Source: Sulfurimonadaceae bacterium (GTDB lineage Bacteria; Campylobacterota; Campylobacteria; Campylobacterales; Sulfurimonadaceae). From it: 64,000 nucleotides of DNA. The notes beneath the pieces are model-generated. The model worked only from the letters and a program-made list of their open reading frames with translations. It had not been told where the DNA came from and searched no databases. Position 1 is the first letter of the stretch; each line of letters starts with the position of its first letter. The stretch is from NCBI GenBank assembly GCA_041571435.1, contig JBFFUI010000006.1, positions 1 to 64,000 of the forward strand, written 5' to 3'. Below are positions 12,045 through 62,661 of the stretch, one piece after another. The position numbers and the translations under genes were made by a program.

Positions 12045-12482
12045 TCAGCTTGATGCTCCCTGCTTATTCGCCAATATCGCATAGATATCGGCTATATCGG
12101 CTTTAAGACGGTAAAGTTGATCGATCTCGCCTGACGCCAGCACACGGTTGAGCAGTGCCAGCATCTGTTGCAGTTTTGTTTCGATGGTCATACTGTTCGT
12201 CGAGGTCGAAGCCGGGTCACTTTGAACAGCAGTCTGGCTGGGCAGGGTAGTTACCAGTTTTTCAAACTCCTCTTTAATGGGTTCGATATTGTAGCGGTAA
12301 TAGCGTTCGCCCGTCCGCCCTTCAAACGCTTTTGCAATACCGTGCGTGATAGCCTGCTCAAAGGGAAAGCCCTGTTGTTCAGGATGGTCGGCATCACGTA
12401 TTTTGAGTTTATAGAGAATCTTGCCTACGCTTTTGGCATCGATGTCGTACTCTTTGCCTATCTGTGTCATGGTCTTGAACAT
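12045..12482 (-). CDS. Hypothetical protein, possible N-terminal winged-HTH-like region
   Basis: ATG 12482 behind AAGGAG; TMTQIGKEYDIDAKSVGKILYKL is HTH-like. Confidence 0.6.
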   Translation of the reverse strand: MFKTMTQIGKEYDIDAKSVGKILYKLKIRDADHPEQQGFPFEQAITHGIAKAFEGRTGERYYRYNIEPIKEEFEKLVTTLPSQTAVQSDPASTSTNSMTIETKLQQMLALLNRVLASGEIDQLYRLKADIADIYAILANKQGASS

Positions 12483-12852
12483 GATTGACTCCTTGATCGT
12501 ATTTACCATACAGTAATGCAAATAAATATTTTTAAACAAAATTATGACAATCTGACATATTGTATGCTTTATGAGGGAGCAAGGGTATTCGTCTGTTTGG
12601 TCCAAAGGGTTTTAGCAAGACATGGACTAGAGCTGTTTGATGATGACTGATGGCTACAACGTCATATCATCAAGAAAAAAACCAGTAACTACAAGAGAAA
12701 GCAGTACAGCCGTTGGTACACGAGACTTGATGCCGCTATGATCAAATAAGTGAAGTTTGTAAACAAGTGTAACTTTACAGAGGGCAGAATGGCTTAAACT
12801 ATTTTCAAGAGAATATACATTATGTTAACCAATGTCTGTTTCACTCTTCATA

Positions 12853-17186: not shown

Positions 17187-18485
17187 ATGTTACGTTTTGC
17201 CCCGAGCCCAACCGGTGATATGCACATCGGAAACTTACGAGTCGCCCTTTTTAATTATATTGTTGCAAAACAGCGCGGTGAAGAGCTGATCGTCCGTATC
17301 GAAGACACCGACAAAGAACGCAATATTGAGGGTAAAGATAAAGAGATCTTAGATATTCTGGGCCTTTTTGGCATTGAATACTCGAATGTTCTGCACCAGA
17401 GCGAACAGCTCCGTTATCACCGTATGATGGCAATACAGCTGTTACAGGACAAAAAAGCGTTCAACTGTTTTTGTACCCCTGCCGAACTGGAAGTCAAGCG
17501 TGAAATTGCCAAAAAATCGCGCAAGCCATTCCGTTATGATGACGTCTGTACACACCTACCGGCCGAGCAGACGATCGACAATGAAAACCCGTTTACGATC
17601 CGTCTGCGTCGCCCTGAAGAGCCTGTCGTAACGAACGACCTGATCAAAGGGGAGATCAGCTTCGCACCCGAAGAGATCGACTCCTTTATCATCATGCGTG
17701 CGGAAAAATACCCTACCTACAACTTTGCCTGCGCGATCGATGACATGCTGAGTGACATATCGATGGTCATTCGCGGCGAAGACCACATGAGCAATACACC
17801 CAAACAGATAGCGGTACGTAATGCACTCGGTTACGAGAAGGCTATGGAGTATGCCCACTTGCCGATCATCCTGAACGATGAGGGTAAAAAGATGAGTAAG
17901 CGCGACGACGCCTCCTCGGTCAAATGGCTTCTTGAGGAGGGCTACCTCCCTTCTGCTATCACCAACTACCTGATCCACCTCGGCAACAAGACGCCTGCGG
18001 AGATCTTTACGCTGGAAGATGCTTTGGAGTGGTTTACGCTTTCAAGTATCTCAAAGTCTCCGGCCCGTTTCGATATCGACAAGCTGAAGTTCATTAATGG
18101 ACAGCACCTGCGAAACCTTGATGCAAAAGAGCTCTCACGTTATGTCGGTTTTGCTGATGAAGCGATCGGTCAGGTGGCCAAGATCTATCTTGAAGAGGCA
18201 CGTACACTTAAAGAACTCCGACCAAAGATCGAAGCGATCTTTGCCGAGAAAGTTATCCCGGAAGAGTTTGCAGAACAGGCGGAAGTGATGCGAAAAGTGA
18301 TCATGGCCGCACCGTATTTTGAGTCCTTTGATGACTTCAAAAACCACATTATGAATGAGAGCGGCCTTAAAGGCAAGAACTTTTTCAAACCGCTTCGCCT
18401 TCTTCTGACGGGTGCTGATAACGGTCCGGAAGTAGCAGACCTGTACGTCTACCTTAAAGACTTTATGGGCGAGATCGTAAAATGA
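17187..18485 (+). CDS. gltX2: Glutamate-tRNA ligase, GluRS2 type
   Basis: [16 protein letters not shown] start as in Helicobacter GluRS2; HIGN and KMSKR motifs; short length (432 aa); synteny with yggT-slt. Confidence 0.88.
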
Positions 18486-18778
18486 GTGCGCTGGCAAACA
18501 TCTTTGTTGGCATCGGCGGTATTGTCCATTCACTGCTGACGATCTATATCTGGGTCGTTATCATCGCTGCATTGCTTTCATGGGTGCGCCCCGACCCCTA
18601 CAACCCTATCGTGCAGTTCCTGACGCGTATCACGTCGCCGGCGTATCAGCTGGTTCGACGCATGATGCCGACATACTTCAACGGCATAGACTTTGCGCCG
18701 TTGATCATTATCATCGCTCTGCAAGTGATCGATATCGTGCTGGTCACTCTTATTAATACGGTTGCGAGCGCGTTCTAA
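18482..18778 (+). CDS. yggT: YggT family membrane protein
   Basis: [17 protein letters not shown]...GIDFAPL. Confidence 0.92.
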
Positions 18779-20427
18779 TGCGTCCCCTTTTAGCATTGCT
18801 TTTGAGCACACTGCTTTATGCAGAGGTGTCACTTGATGAGATCAACACGAAGCCCAGCTCTTTGGCCAAAAACTTTATGATCTGGCGTTTCCTGCACCAG
18901 GACATCACGCCGGCTCAGGCAGATGAAGCCTTTTACCAATACCGTGATGTCGATACCCGTCTGTTTAAAGCGTATGCCAAAAAGTCTGACCGGGAAGAGG
19001 TGATCTACACGGCAGAGTGCCTCTCTATGTCGGCCAAAGAGCTGGTCAAGAGCAACGACATCTCTTGTGTCAAGATGGCCTTCTCTCCCTCTAAAGCAGC
19101 CACGATCAATGAAGTAGATCGTAACCGTCTTGCGAGACTTCTGGGCAGTGAGAAGACCTATACGTGGGTTGAGTTGATGAACGATCTGCTGCAGACCCAA
19201 CGCATTACCGACCTGAAACGCTATAAACCTGCAACGTTTATGTACCTCTTTTTGAGTGCCGGTGCGAAGTTTCGACAAGAGAACCTTAACCGCGCTCTTC
19301 CCTCCGAATACATTACCGCGATCCAAAAACATTGGGGTTTCAACCGTTTTGTGGTGATGGTCGTCACGGACAACCGTTACGCAAACCTCCAAAAAGAGCT
19401 GTTGAAGATCCCCTCTTCCGCGAAGTTGAACTCGGAGACACATTTTTATCTGGCGATGAACGCGATCGAGCATGCACAAGACGACAATGCTCTTGCCTAC
19501 CTCAAAAAGGTATATGAACTTGCCTACTACCGTTCGCATAAAGACAAGGCCCTCTTCTGGCAATATCTGCTGACCAAAGACAAAGGGATTTTGACACAGC
19601 TGGGTGAGAGCGTCGATATCAACATGTACTCGCTCTATGCCAAAGAGAAGCTCGGCATAGAGGTGACAAACTTCTATACTACACTGCCTACGCGCGAAAA
19701 CAACACCACCAAAGCGGACCTGACAGACCCCTTTGTCTGGAACGACCTCCTCATAGAGATCAGAGAGACCCCGAAAGAAGATCTGCCGAAACTTGCGGAT
19801 AAGTATGCCAATGAAGAGATGCTGCCGCTGCACTCTTTTATCTATGAGAAAGCCTCGGGATACAAGGAGATGGGGTACATCATGCCGTATGACAAGTACA
19901 TGCATGACCTCTCAAACGAGGACAAGGCGATCTACTATGCGCTGATGCGTCAGGAGAGCCGTTTCATCCCTGCGGCACTTTCACGTTCGTATGCTCTTGG
20001 TCTGATGCAGATGATGCCATTTCTGGTCAAGGCTCTGGATAAAAGTTTTAAAGACAAACGCCACTCCTTTGAGGAGATGTTCGATCCGGAGAAAAACATC
20101 ACCTACGCCAAGAAACATATCGCCTGGCTTCAAAAAAGCCTTTACCATCCGGTGCTGATGGCGTATGCCTACAATGGCGGCATCGGTTTTACCAAGCGCT
20201 ACATCACCAAAGACAACTGTTTTACCAATACCAAGTACGAACCGTTTATGAGTATGGAGATGATGGCCAATTCCGAGAGCCGTGAATACGGTAAGAAAGT
20301 GTTGAGCAACTATGTGATCTATAAAAAGATCCTGGGTGAAGAGGTCTCTATTGTTGCGCTTTTTGATAAGTTATTACAGCCTGCTCAGTGTGACCGCTTT
20401 CGAGCACCAAAACAGGCTGCTCGCTAG
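18778..20427 (+). CDS. slt: Soluble lytic transglycosylase
   Basis: RQESRF catalytic Glu, ALGLMQMMP, AYNGG. Confidence 0.9.
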   Translation: MRPLLALLLSTLLYAEVSLDEINTKPSSLAKNFMIWRFLHQDITPAQADEAFYQYRDVDTRLFKAYAKKSDREEVIYTAECLSMSAKELVKSNDISCVKMAFSPSKAATINEVDRNRLARLLGSEKTYTWVELMNDLLQTQRITDLKRYKPATFMYLFLSAGAKFRQENLNRALPSEYITAIQKHWGFNRFVVMVVTDNRYANLQKELLKIPSSAKLNSETHFYLAMNAIEHAQDDNALAYLKKVYELAYYRSHKDKALFWQYLLTKDKGILTQLGESVDINMYSLYAKEKLGIEVTNFYTTLPTRENNTTKADLTDPFVWNDLLIEIRETPKEDLPKLADKYANEEMLPLHSFIYEKASGYKEMGYIMPYDKYMHDLSNEDKAIYYALMRQESRFIPAALSRSYALGLMQMMPFLVKALDKSFKDKRHSFEEMFDPEKNITYAKKHIAWLQKSLYHPVLMAYAYNGGIGFTKRYITKDNCFTNTKYEPFMSMEMMANSESREYGKKVLSNYVIYKKILGEEVSIVALFDKLLQPAQCDRFRAPKQAAR

Positions 20428-55425: not shown

Positions 55426-55550
55426 CCTCTTTTTTTAAACTGCATAAATGTTCTTTAACTCCCTTAAACATGGCAATTTGTCATCAAAATCTCTTGTAAT
55501 AAAATACATATTACTATATAATAAACTATATAATTGAGCAAGGAAAAGAT

Positions 55551-55739
55551 TTGAAGCCAAAAGACGAAGTGACACGTTCTCTTGTGATTGACAGACAAAC
55601 ATGGGATGAGGCGATGAAATATTCACGTAGCCGGTACAAGATGAGCTTGAGCAAAGTGACTGAAAAGCTGCTGCAGGAGTGGTTGGCTAAAGAGCGTCGC
55701 AAACCACTCGAAAATGAAAACCAGAAACAGTTCTTCTAG
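55551..55739 (+). CDS. Small protein, probable ribbon-helix-helix DNA-binding protein
   Basis: AAGGA RBS with TTG; VTRSLVID strand, helix, then SLSKVTEKLLQEWL. Confidence 0.6.
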   Translation: MKPKDEVTRSLVIDRQTWDEAMKYSRSRYKMSLSKVTEKLLQEWLAKERRKPLENENQKQFF

Positions 55740-58527: not shown

Positions 58528-60057
58528 CTATCCATTTGCCTTCTTTTTACTTTTCACTTTGCGCTTTTTCTTTTTTTTCGCTGGCTTGTAGGTAAAGATA
58601 TTCATGCGGTCCAGGCTAGGCATCAGTGAACTGTTGTAGTCGTAGCCATTTTGTTCGCTACCGATATCCAATGTGCTGATGACGACTTTACCGACGATTA
58701 CCCGCCCCTCTTCCGCATTATCGTCAACAGTTTTGATCCCCCACATGTTGTGCAGTATCATGATATTGTCATCATAGGTCCCAAGGTAGAGCATTATATG
58801 CCCTTTGCGGTGCAAAAAGGTCTCAAACGGTATAGCTTCCGCTTTGATCAACTCCTCTTTTTCGGTTATATTGAGATCAGCAAGCGATATAACTTTTCCG
58901 ATACGTGACTGCTGTCTGGAGTTGCGGGGCATCCAGATACCGAATGGCGTATAGATGTCACGCAGTGTCGAAGAGCAGTCTCTCTCTTCATACAGTCCTC
59001 CCCAACCGTAATTGCTTTTCATGACACCGGATGTTATCCGGGTAAGGTTCTCTTGATTAAGGAAAAGCGGTTTGGTTGTCACGTCACTGTGTTTAAATCT
59101 GATCGTGACGAAGGTCGGTCTGTTAAAGGCACCGGGTGCAACAGCACGTGCATACGTATACAGCCCTCTTTTTTTCACGAAACTAAGGCGCATGCCCACA
59201 CGGGAATAAAAGAGGAAATGTCCCTCGGTGTCCGTGAGTGCGACCTTCTCTTTCAAAAGATAGACCGGTTTCGCCTTCATCCATTTTTTACGCTCTTTTT
59301 TGTTCATGAAAGCGATCGTATAGCTAGGCAGCCATCCGGAAGCGTAAGAGGTATAGACATAGGCCCATGCTTTATCTTTCGAATAGTGCGAGATGAAGAC
59401 AGGCTCATTGGCATGGATAGCACTGTTTTGAAGGTAGTCAAACGGAAAACCTTCGCCCGCAAGGTTTGGGTCTCTAAAGAGCGGCTTTTGGGTCGGAAAG
59501 TTGCGCAGTGATGAAAAATGCAGGGTTATACCGTAGCGGCTTACCTTTCCGAAATGTTCAAAATTGGCCTGCTCGAGCATCTCGTCAAACCAGGACGGTT
59601 CGAGGAGTTGCAGGTTTTCACCGTACGAACATCCTTTCGTGTAGACACGAAACGGCCAGCGGGCCGTTGAGACCCTTTCCGGAGGGCGCTTATAGCTCCA
59701 GACCGAAAAGTAGTTTTTATCAAAAGTTTTTTGGACGTCATAATACCGTTTATGCGTCGCTGAGCTCTTTTCGGCATAGACATCTATCTCTTGCGGAAAA
59801 CGGTAAAGATCCTCTACAAAATGGGGATAGACCGGTGTAATACAGAAACCATCACCGGATCCTGTCTCCTTTTTGGCAGTTGACAGTTTAAGCTGTTTCA
59901 GCTCTTTTACCGCCTTGGCGTTGCTTTGCGCGTTTATAAGCGTAAGTGTTTCGTTTTCTTGTCTTGCCTCTGTACCATACGCGTTAAAAGAGAGTAGAGC
60001 TGCCAGGCCTGTAAGCAAGAGAGCGAAACGTAAACCTTTGTTTTGATGCAACTGCAT
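58528..60057 (-). CDS. SH3-domain NlpC/P60 (C40) peptidoglycan peptidase
   Basis: YGWGG...RDCS, MPRNS..Q, GHIMLY; Lys-rich tail. Confidence 0.88.
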   Translation of the reverse strand: MQLHQNKGLRFALLLTGLAALLSFNAYGTEARQENETLTLINAQSNAKAVKELKQLKLSTAKKETGSGDGFCITPVYPHFVEDLYRFPQEIDVYAEKSSATHKRYYDVQKTFDKNYFSVWSYKRPPERVSTARWPFRVYTKGCSYGENLQLLEPSWFDEMLEQANFEHFGKVSRYGITLHFSSLRNFPTQKPLFRDPNLAGEGFPFDYLQNSAIHANEPVFISHYSKDKAWAYVYTSYASGWLPSYTIAFMNKKERKKWMKAKPVYLLKEKVALTDTEGHFLFYSRVGMRLSFVKKRGLYTYARAVAPGAFNRPTFVTIRFKHSDVTTKPLFLNQENLTRITSGVMKSNYGWGGLYEERDCSSTLRDIYTPFGIWMPRNSRQQSRIGKVISLADLNITEKEELIKAEAIPFETFLHRKGHIMLYLGTYDDNIMILHNMWGIKTVDDNAEEGRVIVGKVVISTLDIGSEQNGYDYNSSLMPSLDRMNIFTYKPAKKKKKRKVKSKKKANG

Positions 60058-60098
60058 CTCCTTTTATACCACCTCAGAGACCGTTAGAAGTGTAAAGC

Positions 60099-60764
60099 TT
60101 ACTCTACTCCGCCGTAACGCCCGACAACACGGCCGAGAATGTTGATCTGTTCCGGTGCAGCGACTTGCGGCAGATAGAAATCTTTATTGTCTGAAATTAT
60201 ATCGATTTTACCATCTATACGCTTTTGTAATCGTTTAACAAGCAGCATATCTTCTGTTTGGATCGCAAAAACACCGCCGCGGGAAATGTCGACTTTCGAA
60301 CGGTTTAAAAAGATGATGTCACCATTTAAAAAAGTGGGTTCCATCGAATCCCCGGTCACGTTGATGGCTTCTATGTTCTTCAGTTCGCTCTCACCGCCTA
60401 AAGTCGCCAGAAAGTGTGGCTCAATCGCGAGGTTTTCAGCCTCTTCGCCTTCATCCGCAAAGCCGCCGCCGCCTGCCGAAGCATTAACGGCATTAAAATA
60501 ACGGACCATATAAAACTGGTTGGTCGCCTCGACCAGGGACTCGGGACTCTGGTCGTACAAGAGCCAGTTAATGGCAATAGAACGTTTGGCGCAGAAATTC
60601 AATAGCTCCTCATAAGGGATCTTTTCGCGTTTTTTCATCGTCGCAAAATTCATCTGTGAAATCTCCAGTGCATTTGCCACATCTTTGTCAAATACTTTTT
60701 TACCCGGGATATCTGATGAGATGATATCTTTTATCTCTTCTACGATCTCGCTGAAACTTTTCAT
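60099..60764 (-). CDS. CI/LexA-like repressor: HTH plus S24 autopeptidase
   Basis: HTH DKDVANALEISQMNFATMKKR; ASAG cleavage site; GDSMEP Ser; VKRL Lys; AAAGGA RBS. Confidence 0.9.
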   Translation of the reverse strand: MKSFSEIVEEIKDIISSDIPGKKVFDKDVANALEISQMNFATMKKREKIPYEELLNFCAKRSIAINWLLYDQSPESLVEATNQFYMVRYFNAVNASAGGGGFADEGEEAENLAIEPHFLATLGGESELKNIEAINVTGDSMEPTFLNGDIIFLNRSKVDISRGGVFAIQTEDMLLVKRLQKRIDGKIDIISDNKDFYLPQVAAPEQINILGRVVGRYGGVE

Positions 60765-60809
60765 ATTCCATCCTTTTTATGGACACCTCATTGCATCGCT
60801 CTCTTCAGG

Positions 60810-60882
60810 TGCCATACTTTTTATACCAGCATCATAAGATGTTGCCATACTTTATCCAAATAATATGTCAAATTGCAATATT
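60810..60882. promoter_or_regulatory. Candidate operator sites in the divergent intergenic region
   Basis: TGCCATACTTT at 60810 and 60843; imperfect inverted repeat AATATGTCAA-A-TTGCAATATT at 60862-60882. Confidence 0.45.
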
Positions 60883-60945
60883 TTATACAACACAGTTACA
60901 AAATTCATAGAATGTGCCTATAAAAGTGATTCAAAAGGATGACAG

Positions 60946-61029
60946 ATGGCAAGAATAATCAAAACTGCGGATTCATTTCTGGGCAGATCGTTAGCGTCGC
61001 TAAATCGTTGGGCAGACAAAATTTTATAA
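60946..61029 (+). CDS. Micro-ORF, 27 aa amphipathic peptide
   Basis: AAAAGGA RBS; MARIIKTADSFLGRSLASLNRWADKIL*. Confidence 0.55.
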   Translation: MARIIKTADSFLGRSLASLNRWADKIL

Positions 61030-61042
61030 TCAAGGAGAGGTG

Positions 61043-61153
61043 ATGAATATCAACAGCAGAGAGTACCTATTAATCAAAAAAGTGATCAAGACCAACCCGA
61101 ATATCTCCGTGGGCGATATGGGGCGATTGATAAAACTGATCTACAACAGCTAA
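61043..61153 (+). CDS. Micro-ORF, 36 aa, HTH-fragment-like
   Basis: AAGGAG RBS; MNINSREYLLIKKVIKTNPNISVGDMGRLIKLIYNS*. Confidence 0.6.
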   Translation: MNINSREYLLIKKVIKTNPNISVGDMGRLIKLIYNS

Positions 61154-61167
61154 ATATCGTTTTCAGC

Positions 61168-61214
61168 AGAGAGCGCTGTTCTACCCTTTTAGATCAACTC
61201 CAGCGTTCTCTTTA
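61168..61214 (+). terminator. Stem-loop after the micro-ORFs
   Basis: AGAGAGCGCTG (61168-61178) pairs with CAGCGTTCTCT (61201-61211), one G-U. Confidence 0.5.
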
Positions 61215-61329
61215 TCATTCTGAAGCTTTGTCTCTTCACGCTCTTCGAGCTTGCTCTGATGGTAACCTCGAAAGATAAAGAACAAAAAGAGGATAAACAG
61301 CCCCGTCATAACATAATCCATAAAACTGC

Positions 61330-61800
61330 TCACATCAAAGCCTTGTATGCACTAAAGTTCTGTTTGATCGCCTCATAGAGAATGATCCCGGTACTTACGG
61401 CAAGATTCAAGCTGCGTCCCTCTTTGGTCATGGGGATGGTCATACAGTGTTCCGGGTTTGCCGCAAGCAGTTCAGCAGGAAGTCCTTTTGTCTCAGAACC
61501 AAAAAAGAGGAAGTCGTTCTCCTGGAATTTCTGCTCAAAATAGGGTGTATCCGTTTTAGTGGTGCCGTAAAAGTAACGGGCATTGGCATCCTGGGCGGCA
61601 AAGAAGCTCTCAAGGTCCTCCCAGACATGAAGGTCAAGTTTATGCCAATAGTCCAATCCTGCCCTGCGGACCGCCTTTTCGTCAATATCAAAACCGAGCG
61701 GTTTGATCAGGTGCAGTGTTGAACCGGTGTTGACACAAAGACGACCGATACTACCTGTGTTGTTGGGGATCTCCGGACGGACCAATACAATATTAAACAA
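61330..61800 (-). CDS. trmL: tRNA (cytidine(34)-2'-O)-methyltransferase
   Basis: PEIPNNTG.I.R, RRAGLDYW, FGSETKGL, RSLNLA. Confidence 0.95.
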   Translation of the reverse strand: MFNIVLVRPEIPNNTGSIGRLCVNTGSTLHLIKPLGFDIDEKAVRRAGLDYWHKLDLHVWEDLESFFAAQDANARYFYGTTKTDTPYFEQKFQENDFLFFGSETKGLPAELLAANPEHCMTIPMTKEGRSLNLAVSTGIILYEAIKQNFSAYKALM

Positions 61801-61824
61801 AAAGGCTCCTGTCTGTTTTAGGGT

Positions 61825-62661
61825 TTAGAAAATCACTGTTTTATTGGCATAGACAAAGATACGGTCTTCCAAAGCAAGCTTCAAAGCCCGTGAGAGAACA
61901 ATCTTCTCGACATCACGGCCCGAACGTTGCATGTCGCGCCAGCTGTAGGCATGGTCGATATGCTTGATCTCTTGTGAGATGATCGGACCTTCATCGAGAT
62001 TGTTGTTGACAAAGTGTGCCGTTGCACCGATAATCTTAACACCACGTTCAAAAGCCTGTTTGTAAGGGTTCGCCCCAATGAATGCAGGCAGAAACGAGTG
62101 GTGGATGTTGATGATCTTGTCTTCATACGCTTCGACGAATCGAGGTGTCAAGATACGCATATATTTGGCGAGGACGATATAATCGACATCTTTGTATTGA
62201 CCAAGAACGTCTAAGATCGCCTCTTCATGCGCCTCTCTGTCTAGTCCTTCATGCGAAACGGTGACAAAAGGTATATCAAACTTGCTGACCAGGGGTTCCA
62301 AAAGATCATAATTAGAGACAACGGCCAGAATATTGGCATCCAGCTCCCCTGCTTCATAACGGATCAGGATATCACCCAGGGCATGGGACTCTTTGGTCAC
62401 CATCAAGATAATGTTCTTCTTGCCGGGCTTAACGATATCAACGCTGGAGTTTTCCGGAAGTACGGCTTCAAGTTCGCTCTCGAGCTGATCTGCATCGACC
62501 TTGCCTTCAACAACGGAACGCATGAAGAACTTATCGTTCTCTTTATCAACGAACTCGTTATTGGACATGATGTTCAGTTCATGCTTATAGAAGATACTGG
62601 CGATCTTGTAGACCAGACCTTTCTCATCTTTGGCATCGATTAATACGCGGTATTGCTTCAT
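61825..62661 (-). CDS. purU: Formyltetrahydrofolate deformylase
   Basis: ACT domain, LAKYMRIL, INIHHSFLPAF.GA.PY, LDEGPII. Confidence 0.96.
   Translation of the reverse strand: MKQYRVLIDAKDEKGLVYKIASIFYKHELNIMSNNEFVDKENDKFFMRSVVEGKVDADQLESELEAVLPENSSVDIVKPGKKNIILMVTKESHALGDILIRYEAGELDANILAVVSNYDLLEPLVSKFDIPFVTVSHEGLDREAHEEAILDVLGQYKDVDYIVLAKYMRILTPRFVEAYEDKIINIHHSFLPAFIGANPYKQAFERGVKIIGATAHFVNNNLDEGPIISQEIKHIDHAYSWRDMQRSGRDVEKIVLSRALKLALEDRIFVYANKTVIF

Follow-up and report, generated by a model that had tools for sequence, protein, structure and literature searches.

The DNA analysed here is a stretch of 64,000 nucleotides (nt), hereafter the window, from a sulfur-oxidising marine bacterium, a member of the Sulfurimonadaceae (Campylobacterota; GenBank assembly GCA_041571435.1, contig JBFFUI010000006.1, positions 1 to 64,000), in which the gene for a CI-type repressor with a C-terminal S24 domain is transcribed divergently from two micro-open reading frames (ORFs), ORF1 and ORF2. 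We conclude that this locus probably governs a non-canonical SOS regulon in the Sulfurimonadaceae, with a co-opted CI-type repressor in the place of LexA. A palindromic box between the repressor gene and ORF1 also stands ahead of recA throughout the family and before other DNA-metabolism genes; the module therefore appears to be the hub of a small SOS-like regulon. DNA binding and self-cleavage by the repressor, induction by DNA damage, and the function of ORF1 are all things that we infer from sequence. The main features of the locus are as follows.

60099-60764, minus strand: repressor gene, 221 amino acids (aa), with a CI-type helix-turn-helix (HTH) N-terminal domain, a linker carrying Ala97-Gly98, and an S24 C-terminal domain with Ser140 and Lys177
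60831-60858, minus strand: promoter-like site for the repressor, TGGATA-16-TATGAT, from a consensus scan; its -35 hexamer is 4 nt from the operator
60863-60881, unstranded: 19-bp palindromic operator, ATATGTCAAATTGCAATAT, a candidate SOS box with the half-site ATAT[GT][TGA]CAA
60884-60913, plus strand: promoter-like site for ORF1-ORF2, TATACA-18-TAGAAT, from a consensus scan; its -35 hexamer is 2 nt from the operator
60946-61029, plus strand: ORF1, a 27-aa amphipathic micropeptide with the consensus MAKIIKxAxSFxDRFExSLxRWADKIL; Shine-Dalgarno sequence AAGGA at 60935-60939
61043-61153, plus strand: ORF2, a 36-aa helix-loop-helix micro-protein restricted to the genus; Shine-Dalgarno sequence AAGGAG at 61032-61037

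In the mechanism that we propose, a repressor dimer would bind the palindrome ATATGTCAAATTGCAATAT and, because this palindrome lies between the -35 regions of the divergent promoters, binding of a single dimer would keep both the repressor gene and the ORF1-ORF2 operon repressed; the dimer would also repress recA via the boxes found there. DNA damage would lead to RecA filaments and these to self-cleavage of the repressor at Ala97-Gly98, upon which recA, the repressor gene, and ORF1-ORF2 would be de-repressed. ORF1 would then be the cytosolic output of the module, an amphipathic helix that may inhibit cell division as a checkpoint effector. The steps of dimer binding, RecA-triggered self-cleavage, and induction are drawn from what is known of LexA, CI, and UmuD.

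The repressor, its operator, and the boxes at recA

The C-terminal half of the repressor matches Peptidase_S24 (PF00717; Pfam, E 6.3e-19), and the N-terminal half lies narrowly above the cut-off for the Phage_CI_repr HTH domain (PF07022; 23.0 versus 22 bits). Its best full-length family in PHROG is phrog_4, "transcriptional repressor" (E 1.5e-34). The protein fails the LexA equivalog of NCBIfam, TIGR00498, with 30.4 bits against a cut-off of 110.95 and the C-terminal domain alone aligned, and its N-terminal domain has no Pfam match to the winged-helix domain LexA_DNA_bind (PF01726). Ser96-Ala97-Gly98, Gly138-Asp-Ser140-Met-Glu-Pro, and Lys177 do not vary among 20 aligned orthologues, the most divergent of which has 34% identity; Ser140 and Lys177 pair with Ser119 and Lys156 of Escherichia coli LexA in a HMMER alignment. 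The original prediction, which was made from the DNA letters without database searches, had described an intact HTH-S24 repressor with an Ala-Gly site and a catalytic Ser and Lys, and this description is borne out. An AlphaFold model of the repressor (predicted local distance difference test [pLDDT] score, 84.7) matches phage 186 CI, LexA, and lambda CI over their full length (Foldseek E 2.5e-10 to 7e-07), with 186 CI as the top full-length match. The repressor is thus like canonical LexA and the CI proteins of lambda and 186 in its two domains, its S24 fold, and its serine-lysine pair; it is unlike canonical LexA in having no LexA_DNA_bind domain, and unlike the two phage repressors in that its gene lies outside any prophage and has no cro-like partner.

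A full-length orthologue of the repressor is present in 24/24 genomes of the same family, and 35 of 41 relatives have some match. A scan of named genome records returned at least 506 relatives, the best 80 of which are labelled Sulfurimonadaceae, Sulfurimonas, Sulfuricurvum, Arcobacter, Aliarcobacter, Halarcobacter, Sulfurospirillum, or only Campylobacterales. LexA_DNA_bind was found in 0 of the 41 genomes by a search that was positive in E. coli, Bacillus subtilis, and other controls. By Pfam and NCBIfam, the neighbours of the locus encode an NlpC/P60 protein with an SH3 domain, TrmL, a formyltransferase with an ACT domain, and DapD; other genera have the same gene order (repressor, ORF1, small membrane ORF, trmL), and the G+C content of the locus resembles that of its flanks. 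No integrase or phage structural gene was found near the locus, where the sole PHROG match is the repressor itself, so the flanks are as the original prediction had them (NlpC/P60 and trmL, without phage genes). The repressor has a ratio of nonsynonymous to synonymous substitution rates (dN/dS) of 0.037 and is the sole S24 domain in the whole genome (2.16 Mb; completeness by marker count, 100%). Because it occurs in all 24 family genomes, keeps its synteny with trmL across genera, and has the only S24 domain of its genome, the repressor is a chromosomal core gene and not a prophage relic; the earlier view of it as domesticated holds, and prophage-borne decay is contradicted. The genome also encodes a 125-aa paralogue of the HTH half (G000:C22 ~18407-18783, minus strand, equal to L038:1407-1784), which is ~38% identical over residues 1-107 and has no S24 domain. 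This paralogue, ~14 kb away from recA, is conserved within the genus and may be either a remnant or a competitor that cannot be cleaved.

The 19-bp palindrome is present in all repressor/ORF1 spacers of 26 loci (26/26), which come from the genome of the window, 24 other genomes of the family, and one from a different family; of 79 further loci, 71 have it with a score of 14 bits or more. Its distance to the ATG of ORF1 is nearly constant at ~80 nt, and that to the start of the repressor ranges from ~20 to ~100 nt. In the spacer sequences of other genera, a TAnAAT -10 element is retained ~30 nt ahead of ORF1. A second operator over the -10 element of ORF1 was sought by eye in the spacers and was dropped, as it is not conserved. 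One genome (G022; L018, L184, and L189) has a spacer of 412 nt, compared with the usual ~150-190 nt, and this spacer holds at least two perfect-pattern boxes 123 nt apart.

A position weight matrix was trained solely on the sites in the repressor/ORF1 spacers and then run genome-wide with a cut-off of 10 bits; the top match was the box of the locus itself, at 30.2 bits. Two boxes of 20.8 and 16.7 bits, 30 bp apart, lie 72-102 nt upstream of recA, the upstream region of which ranks 3rd of 1992 by best box score. All 24 family loci have a box of at least 10 bits at a fixed offset ahead of recA, and 16 of the 24 have a second one, 28-30 bp from the first, with a score of at least 12 bits; in the recA promoters of the genus, the proximal box overlaps a TAGAAT hexamer resembling a -10 element. 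In one genome outside the family, with a repressor 52% identical, the recA box reaches 28.9 bits, and four genomes without the repressor have no box before recA. With the box at recA and before the further DNA-metabolism genes below, the label "stand-alone" that the original prediction had given to this switch has to be abandoned. A degenerate form of the box (at most two mismatches) occurs 12, 31, 8, 15, and 13 times in five genomes of five genera, versus 4, 10, 4, 0, and 5 times for a reversed-pattern control.

Among the other genes that follow a box, radA begins 62 nt after a site of 21.5 bits in one genome (L201, G016), and an integron integrase (TIGR02249; 408 bits, cut-off 265) begins 145 nt after a site of 22.1 bits in one genome (L194, G022). 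Integron integrases are LexA-controlled in other bacteria. The window itself contains a second operator and, next to it, a candidate member of the regulon.

12542-12560, unstranded: second operator, with a score of 15.6 bits, ~60 nt ahead of a 145-aa gene
12045-12482, minus strand: 145-aa gene, candidate regulon member, with no match in Pfam, NCBIfam, or PHROG

The 145-aa gene occurs in 11 of 41 relatives and has a box at -77 to -86 in 11/11 of them (8.8 to 29.0 bits); the box is found 59-68 nt upstream of the gene in three genera and in the window itself, and a fusion of the gene to an HRDC domain is found in one genus. A box in the rplL-rpoB spacer (G000:C34:1789-1807; 21.3 bits, 132 nt before rpoB) was considered as a core target and rejected for want of conservation: of the genus loci, 14 were assessable (one more was truncated upstream) and 8 of these have the box at 14.5 bits or more, as against 0 of 15 loci outside the genus. 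Because it is kept in part of the genus and absent outside it, this box is probably unrelated to the regulon.

One genome (G018; L180, L185, and L196) carries three copies of a ~150-nt repeat, with boxes of 26.9, 20.8, and 21.4 bits followed by similar promoter-like sequence, which may be a mobile or duplicated SOS-controlled unit. In the window, a box-like site of 14.1 bits (55468-55486) lies 65 nt before a 62-aa ORF (55551-55739, plus strand) that has a faint CcdA-like match (E 0.05).

The micro-ORFs and the possible role of ORF1

Both micro-ORFs have an AAGGA(G) box 5-6 nt ahead of the ATG, and the two ORFs and their ribosome-binding sites, which had been called from the sequence at the outset, were all confirmed. 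ORF1 is divergent from the repressor in 26/26 loci, in each with an ATG, a Shine-Dalgarno sequence of the AAGGA type, and a stop; its length is 27 aa in 24 of these loci and 28 and 30 aa in the other two, and in the most distant loci its amino-acid identity to the copy in the window is only 19-41%. Over 16 loci of the genus, the pooled Nei-Gojobori dN/dS of ORF1 is 0.14 in frame versus 1.40 and 1.50 in the shifted frames, and its entropy by codon position is 0.39, 0.33, and 1.03, the third position having about three times the entropy of the first and second. For ORF2, dN/dS is 0.037 in frame versus 1.36 and 4.15 in the shifted frames. The repressor, ORF1, and ORF2 are all under strong purifying selection, and on these codon-level signals the two divergent micro-ORFs are real genes, as had been proposed.

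A hidden Markov model of ORF1 recovered a copy at the same position in 44 of 51 further Sulfurimonadaceae-type loci with enough upstream DNA; a 45th copy in this set is broken by a run of N. Of 25 loci of the Arcobacter/Sulfurospirillum type, 18 have an ORF of 31-33 aa that lies as far from the repressor as ORF1 does. These counterparts have a Shine-Dalgarno sequence and a C terminus similar to that of ORF1, G[DTEN]K[IV][LF]; their coding signal is weaker, with a ratio of nonsynonymous to synonymous proportions (pN/pS) of 0.57 versus 0.75 and 1.43 and with synonymous sites near saturation. An ORF1-like tblastn match in contig C31 (E 0.03; 23 aa at 39%) was dismissed as fortuitous. ORF2 was found in 12 of 15 assessable genus loci, and its tblastn matches fell in genus loci only, with none in another genus. 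By tblastn, synteny, and dN/dS, then, the expected conservation of the micro-ORFs stands across families for ORF1, whereas for ORF2 it stands within the genus only. Neither ORF matches a Pfam, NCBIfam, or PHROG family, and an Rfam search of 60000-61900 gave 0 matches.

From its sequence, ORF1 would form a helix with a hydrophobic moment of 0.62, in agreement with the amphipathic helix first proposed. The maximum Kyte-Doolittle mean over 19 residues is 0.56, and no membrane helix is therefore predicted. ORF2 is modelled as a hairpin of two helices, residues 6-17 and 23-35 (pLDDT 88.8), and such a modelled hairpin is too little for assignment as a DNA-binding HTH; a search of the ESM Atlas gave no usable match for ORF2.

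For ORF1 we tentatively put first the reading that it is a DNA-damage checkpoint effector that inhibits cell division, because small divergent inhibitors have been reported beside SOS repressors and SulA was found in 0 of the 41 genomes searched. The sources describe YneA, SidA, and SosA as small, mutually non-homologous division inhibitors divergent from the SOS repressor, and state that further inhibitors of this type probably await discovery, DdrR beside UmuDAb being a recent case (PMC13689564, PMC6851548; accessible text). ORF1 is like YneA, SosA, SidA, and DdrR in that it is small, lineage-specific, and both adjoining and divergent from the repressor, under the candidate operator of the latter; it is unlike YneA, SosA, and SidA in having 27 aa and no membrane segment, the likeness being one of position. 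In Acinetobacter, which has no LexA, UmuDAb is a homologue of UmuD, and DdrR, of ~71-78 aa, is damage-induced and inhibits division; the locus in the window shares with this pair the lack of LexA and an S24 regulator divergently paired with a small lineage-specific protein, and differs in that the repressor is of the CI type and ORF1, compared with DdrR by description, has 27 aa (PMC11332147, PMC13689564; accessible text). The known small SOS division inhibitors are described as membrane proteins of 29-165 aa (PMC13689564; accessible text). Since those inhibitors are membrane proteins, the predicted solubility of ORF1 weighs against a role of this kind; in its favour, ORF1 is the sole target that is invariably beside the repressor. 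ChiZ and DivS are also named among the SOS cell-division inhibitors.

Alternatively, and with about the same likelihood, ORF1 may act not in division but as a modulator in a feedback loop, bound either to the repressor (as co- or anti-repressor) or to RecA. That ORF1 is physically locked to the repressor gene across families, as no other target is, would suit such a modulator, and so would a soluble amphipathic helix, which is apt for protein docking; gp7 of phage GIL01 reportedly acts with LexA in this way, as a repressor-binding modulator. DdrR, too, speaks for this reading, being described as both corepressor and division inhibitor (PMC11332147, PMC13689564; accessible text). Adjacency to the repressor is, however, just as typical of division inhibitors. 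A predicted complex of the repressor dimer with ORF1 scored 0.00, the partner of <30 residues being outside the calibration of the method. On a bolder reading, ORF1 and its 31-33-aa counterparts might together be an old, unannotated family of soluble SOS micropeptides: the smallest damage checkpoint effectors known, the first unanchored ones among those divergent from a repressor, and proteins that would dock, each by its one amphipathic helix, on a component of the divisome or of the RecA pathway, giving free-living Campylobacterota, along with the CI-type repressor, a true SOS response in a phylum reported to have none.

Downstream of ORF2, two more features separate the micro-ORFs from trmL.

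61168-61211, unstranded: stable stem between the convergent ORF2 and a 50-aa ORF; free energy -18.9 kcal/mol, z -4.0
61181-61333, minus strand: 50-aa single-pass membrane ORF between ORF2 and trmL; its GTG start overlaps the trmL stop by 4 nt

The micro-ORFs had been said to be followed by stem-loops. One stable stem is indeed present; it is without a T-run, and the consensus scan found 0 intrinsic terminators after ORF2. The stem is a possible bidirectional transcript end. The 50-aa membrane ORF, which was absent from the original prediction, was found by tblastn in 77 loci across the family.

Alternatives to an SOS role

Several observations weigh against an SOS role for this module. The strong box is located just upstream of the putative -35 region, centred at about -48 from the guessed start, a position that seems unusual for a repressor and with which activation would fit too. 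Outside the family, five of six recA loci have no box. In one of the genomes from another family (G031; L027 and L218), where the repressor is 52% identical, the box a perfect palindrome, and the ORF1 counterpart 30 aa long, the best score before recA is -4.8 bits; the repressor is therefore not linked to recA everywhere. In the window's own genome, recA is the only recognised repair gene beside the 26 sites of at least 10 bits (downstream genes being read as ORF starts only), the best site at radA has 9.9 bits and so falls under the cut-off, and the regulon looks small. Phage 186 CI, the top fold match, is a repressor that we take to be non-self-cleaving. The related genomes, moreover, are non-independent samples in all of the conservation counts given above.

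The fold match to 186 CI, the very small regulon, and the lack of a recA box in G031 would all suit a local autoregulator blind to DNA damage, which would use its S24 domain for dimerisation only and for which the recA boxes would mean something else. We consider this unlikely: none of the 20 orthologues, even at 34% identity, has a change at the Ala-Gly site, Ser140, or Lys177, the repressor has the low dN/dS given above, and the targets of the box are recA, radA, and an integron integrase. That the locus is instead a decaying prophage immunity region, a CI/Cro-like switch with the small ORFs as remnants, is hardly credible, for despite the Phage_CI_repr-type HTH and phrog_4 as the best full-length family phage genes are absent, housekeeping genes of similar G+C content flank the locus, its place beside trmL does not change from genus to genus, all three genes show strong purifying selection, and the box is also at recA. 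We give equally little credence to the idea that the micro-ORFs are untranslated, as an RNA or promoter element, or that ORF1 is a hydrophobic type-I toxin like TisB or DinQ, which are LexA-controlled and membrane-spanning: the ORFs are very short and match no protein family, but third-position entropy and in-frame dN/dS have the pattern of coding sequence, ATG, Shine-Dalgarno sequence, and length are kept while the amino acids drift, Rfam has no match, and the hydropathy of ORF1 does not allow a membrane-spanning peptide.

We thus retain the SOS module as the probable reading. The core of the original prediction, a domesticated damage-sensing module with micropeptide outputs, appears to have been right and is partly supported, its damage induction being predicted from sequence features; the claim that it stands alone was wrong.

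Relation to known SOS systems

Repressors of similar make-up have been described elsewhere. The non-canonical LexA of Bacteroidetes is a chromosomal S24 repressor with a CI-type N-terminal domain that runs the SOS response in a phylum said to be LexA-less (PMC8565304; accessible text). The repressor described here is like it in being a chromosomal S24 repressor with a CI-type N-terminal domain in a LexA-less group; compared by description, the two systems differ in phylum, in the regulon, which looks far smaller here, and in the fixed divergent micropeptide found here. The accessible text of PMC8565304 makes no mention of Epsilonproteobacteria, Campylobacter, Sulfurimonas, or Arcobacter. In Francisella, FddR is a co-opted phage S24 repressor whose core network consists of itself and one divergent gene of unknown function, with recA outside its control and a box of the form GTG-N11-CAC (PMC13148647; accessible text). 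The present system shares with FddR a co-opted phage S24 repressor and a palindromic box; it is unlike FddR, again compared by description, in that the box is at recA in all of the family loci, in the box itself, and in the divergent gene, here a 27-aa micropeptide. Epsilonproteobacteria, Campylobacter, and Campylobacterota are likewise not mentioned in the accessible text of PMC13148647. With non-canonical CI-type S24 SOS regulators as a class, the repressor shares the HTH-S24 fusion, its standing as a core chromosomal gene, and, in silico, a box in its own promoter and before repair genes.

For the Epsilonproteobacteria, the accessible text of two sources reports that a LexA orthologue is missing and that Campylobacter jejuni has no typical SOS response (PMC2390758, PMC13114513). 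In the main text of openly accessible papers on LexA or SOS in Epsilonproteobacteria/Campylobacterota, we found no description of the system presented here.

If our reading is true, free-living families of the Sulfurimonas and Sulfuricurvum type would have an inducible DNA-damage regulon that includes recA and is built on a captured phage repressor, and related modules would exist in genomes of the Arcobacter and Sulfurospirillum type. This would be a further independent rewiring of SOS around a heterologous S24 repressor, after those of Bacteroidetes, Francisella, and Acinetobacter. The locus yields a defined 19-bp box that is usable for regulon prediction and two unannotated micro-protein families under strong selection. 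One of these, ORF1, is a concrete candidate for the missing checkpoint effector where SulA was not found, because it is locked to the repressor across families.

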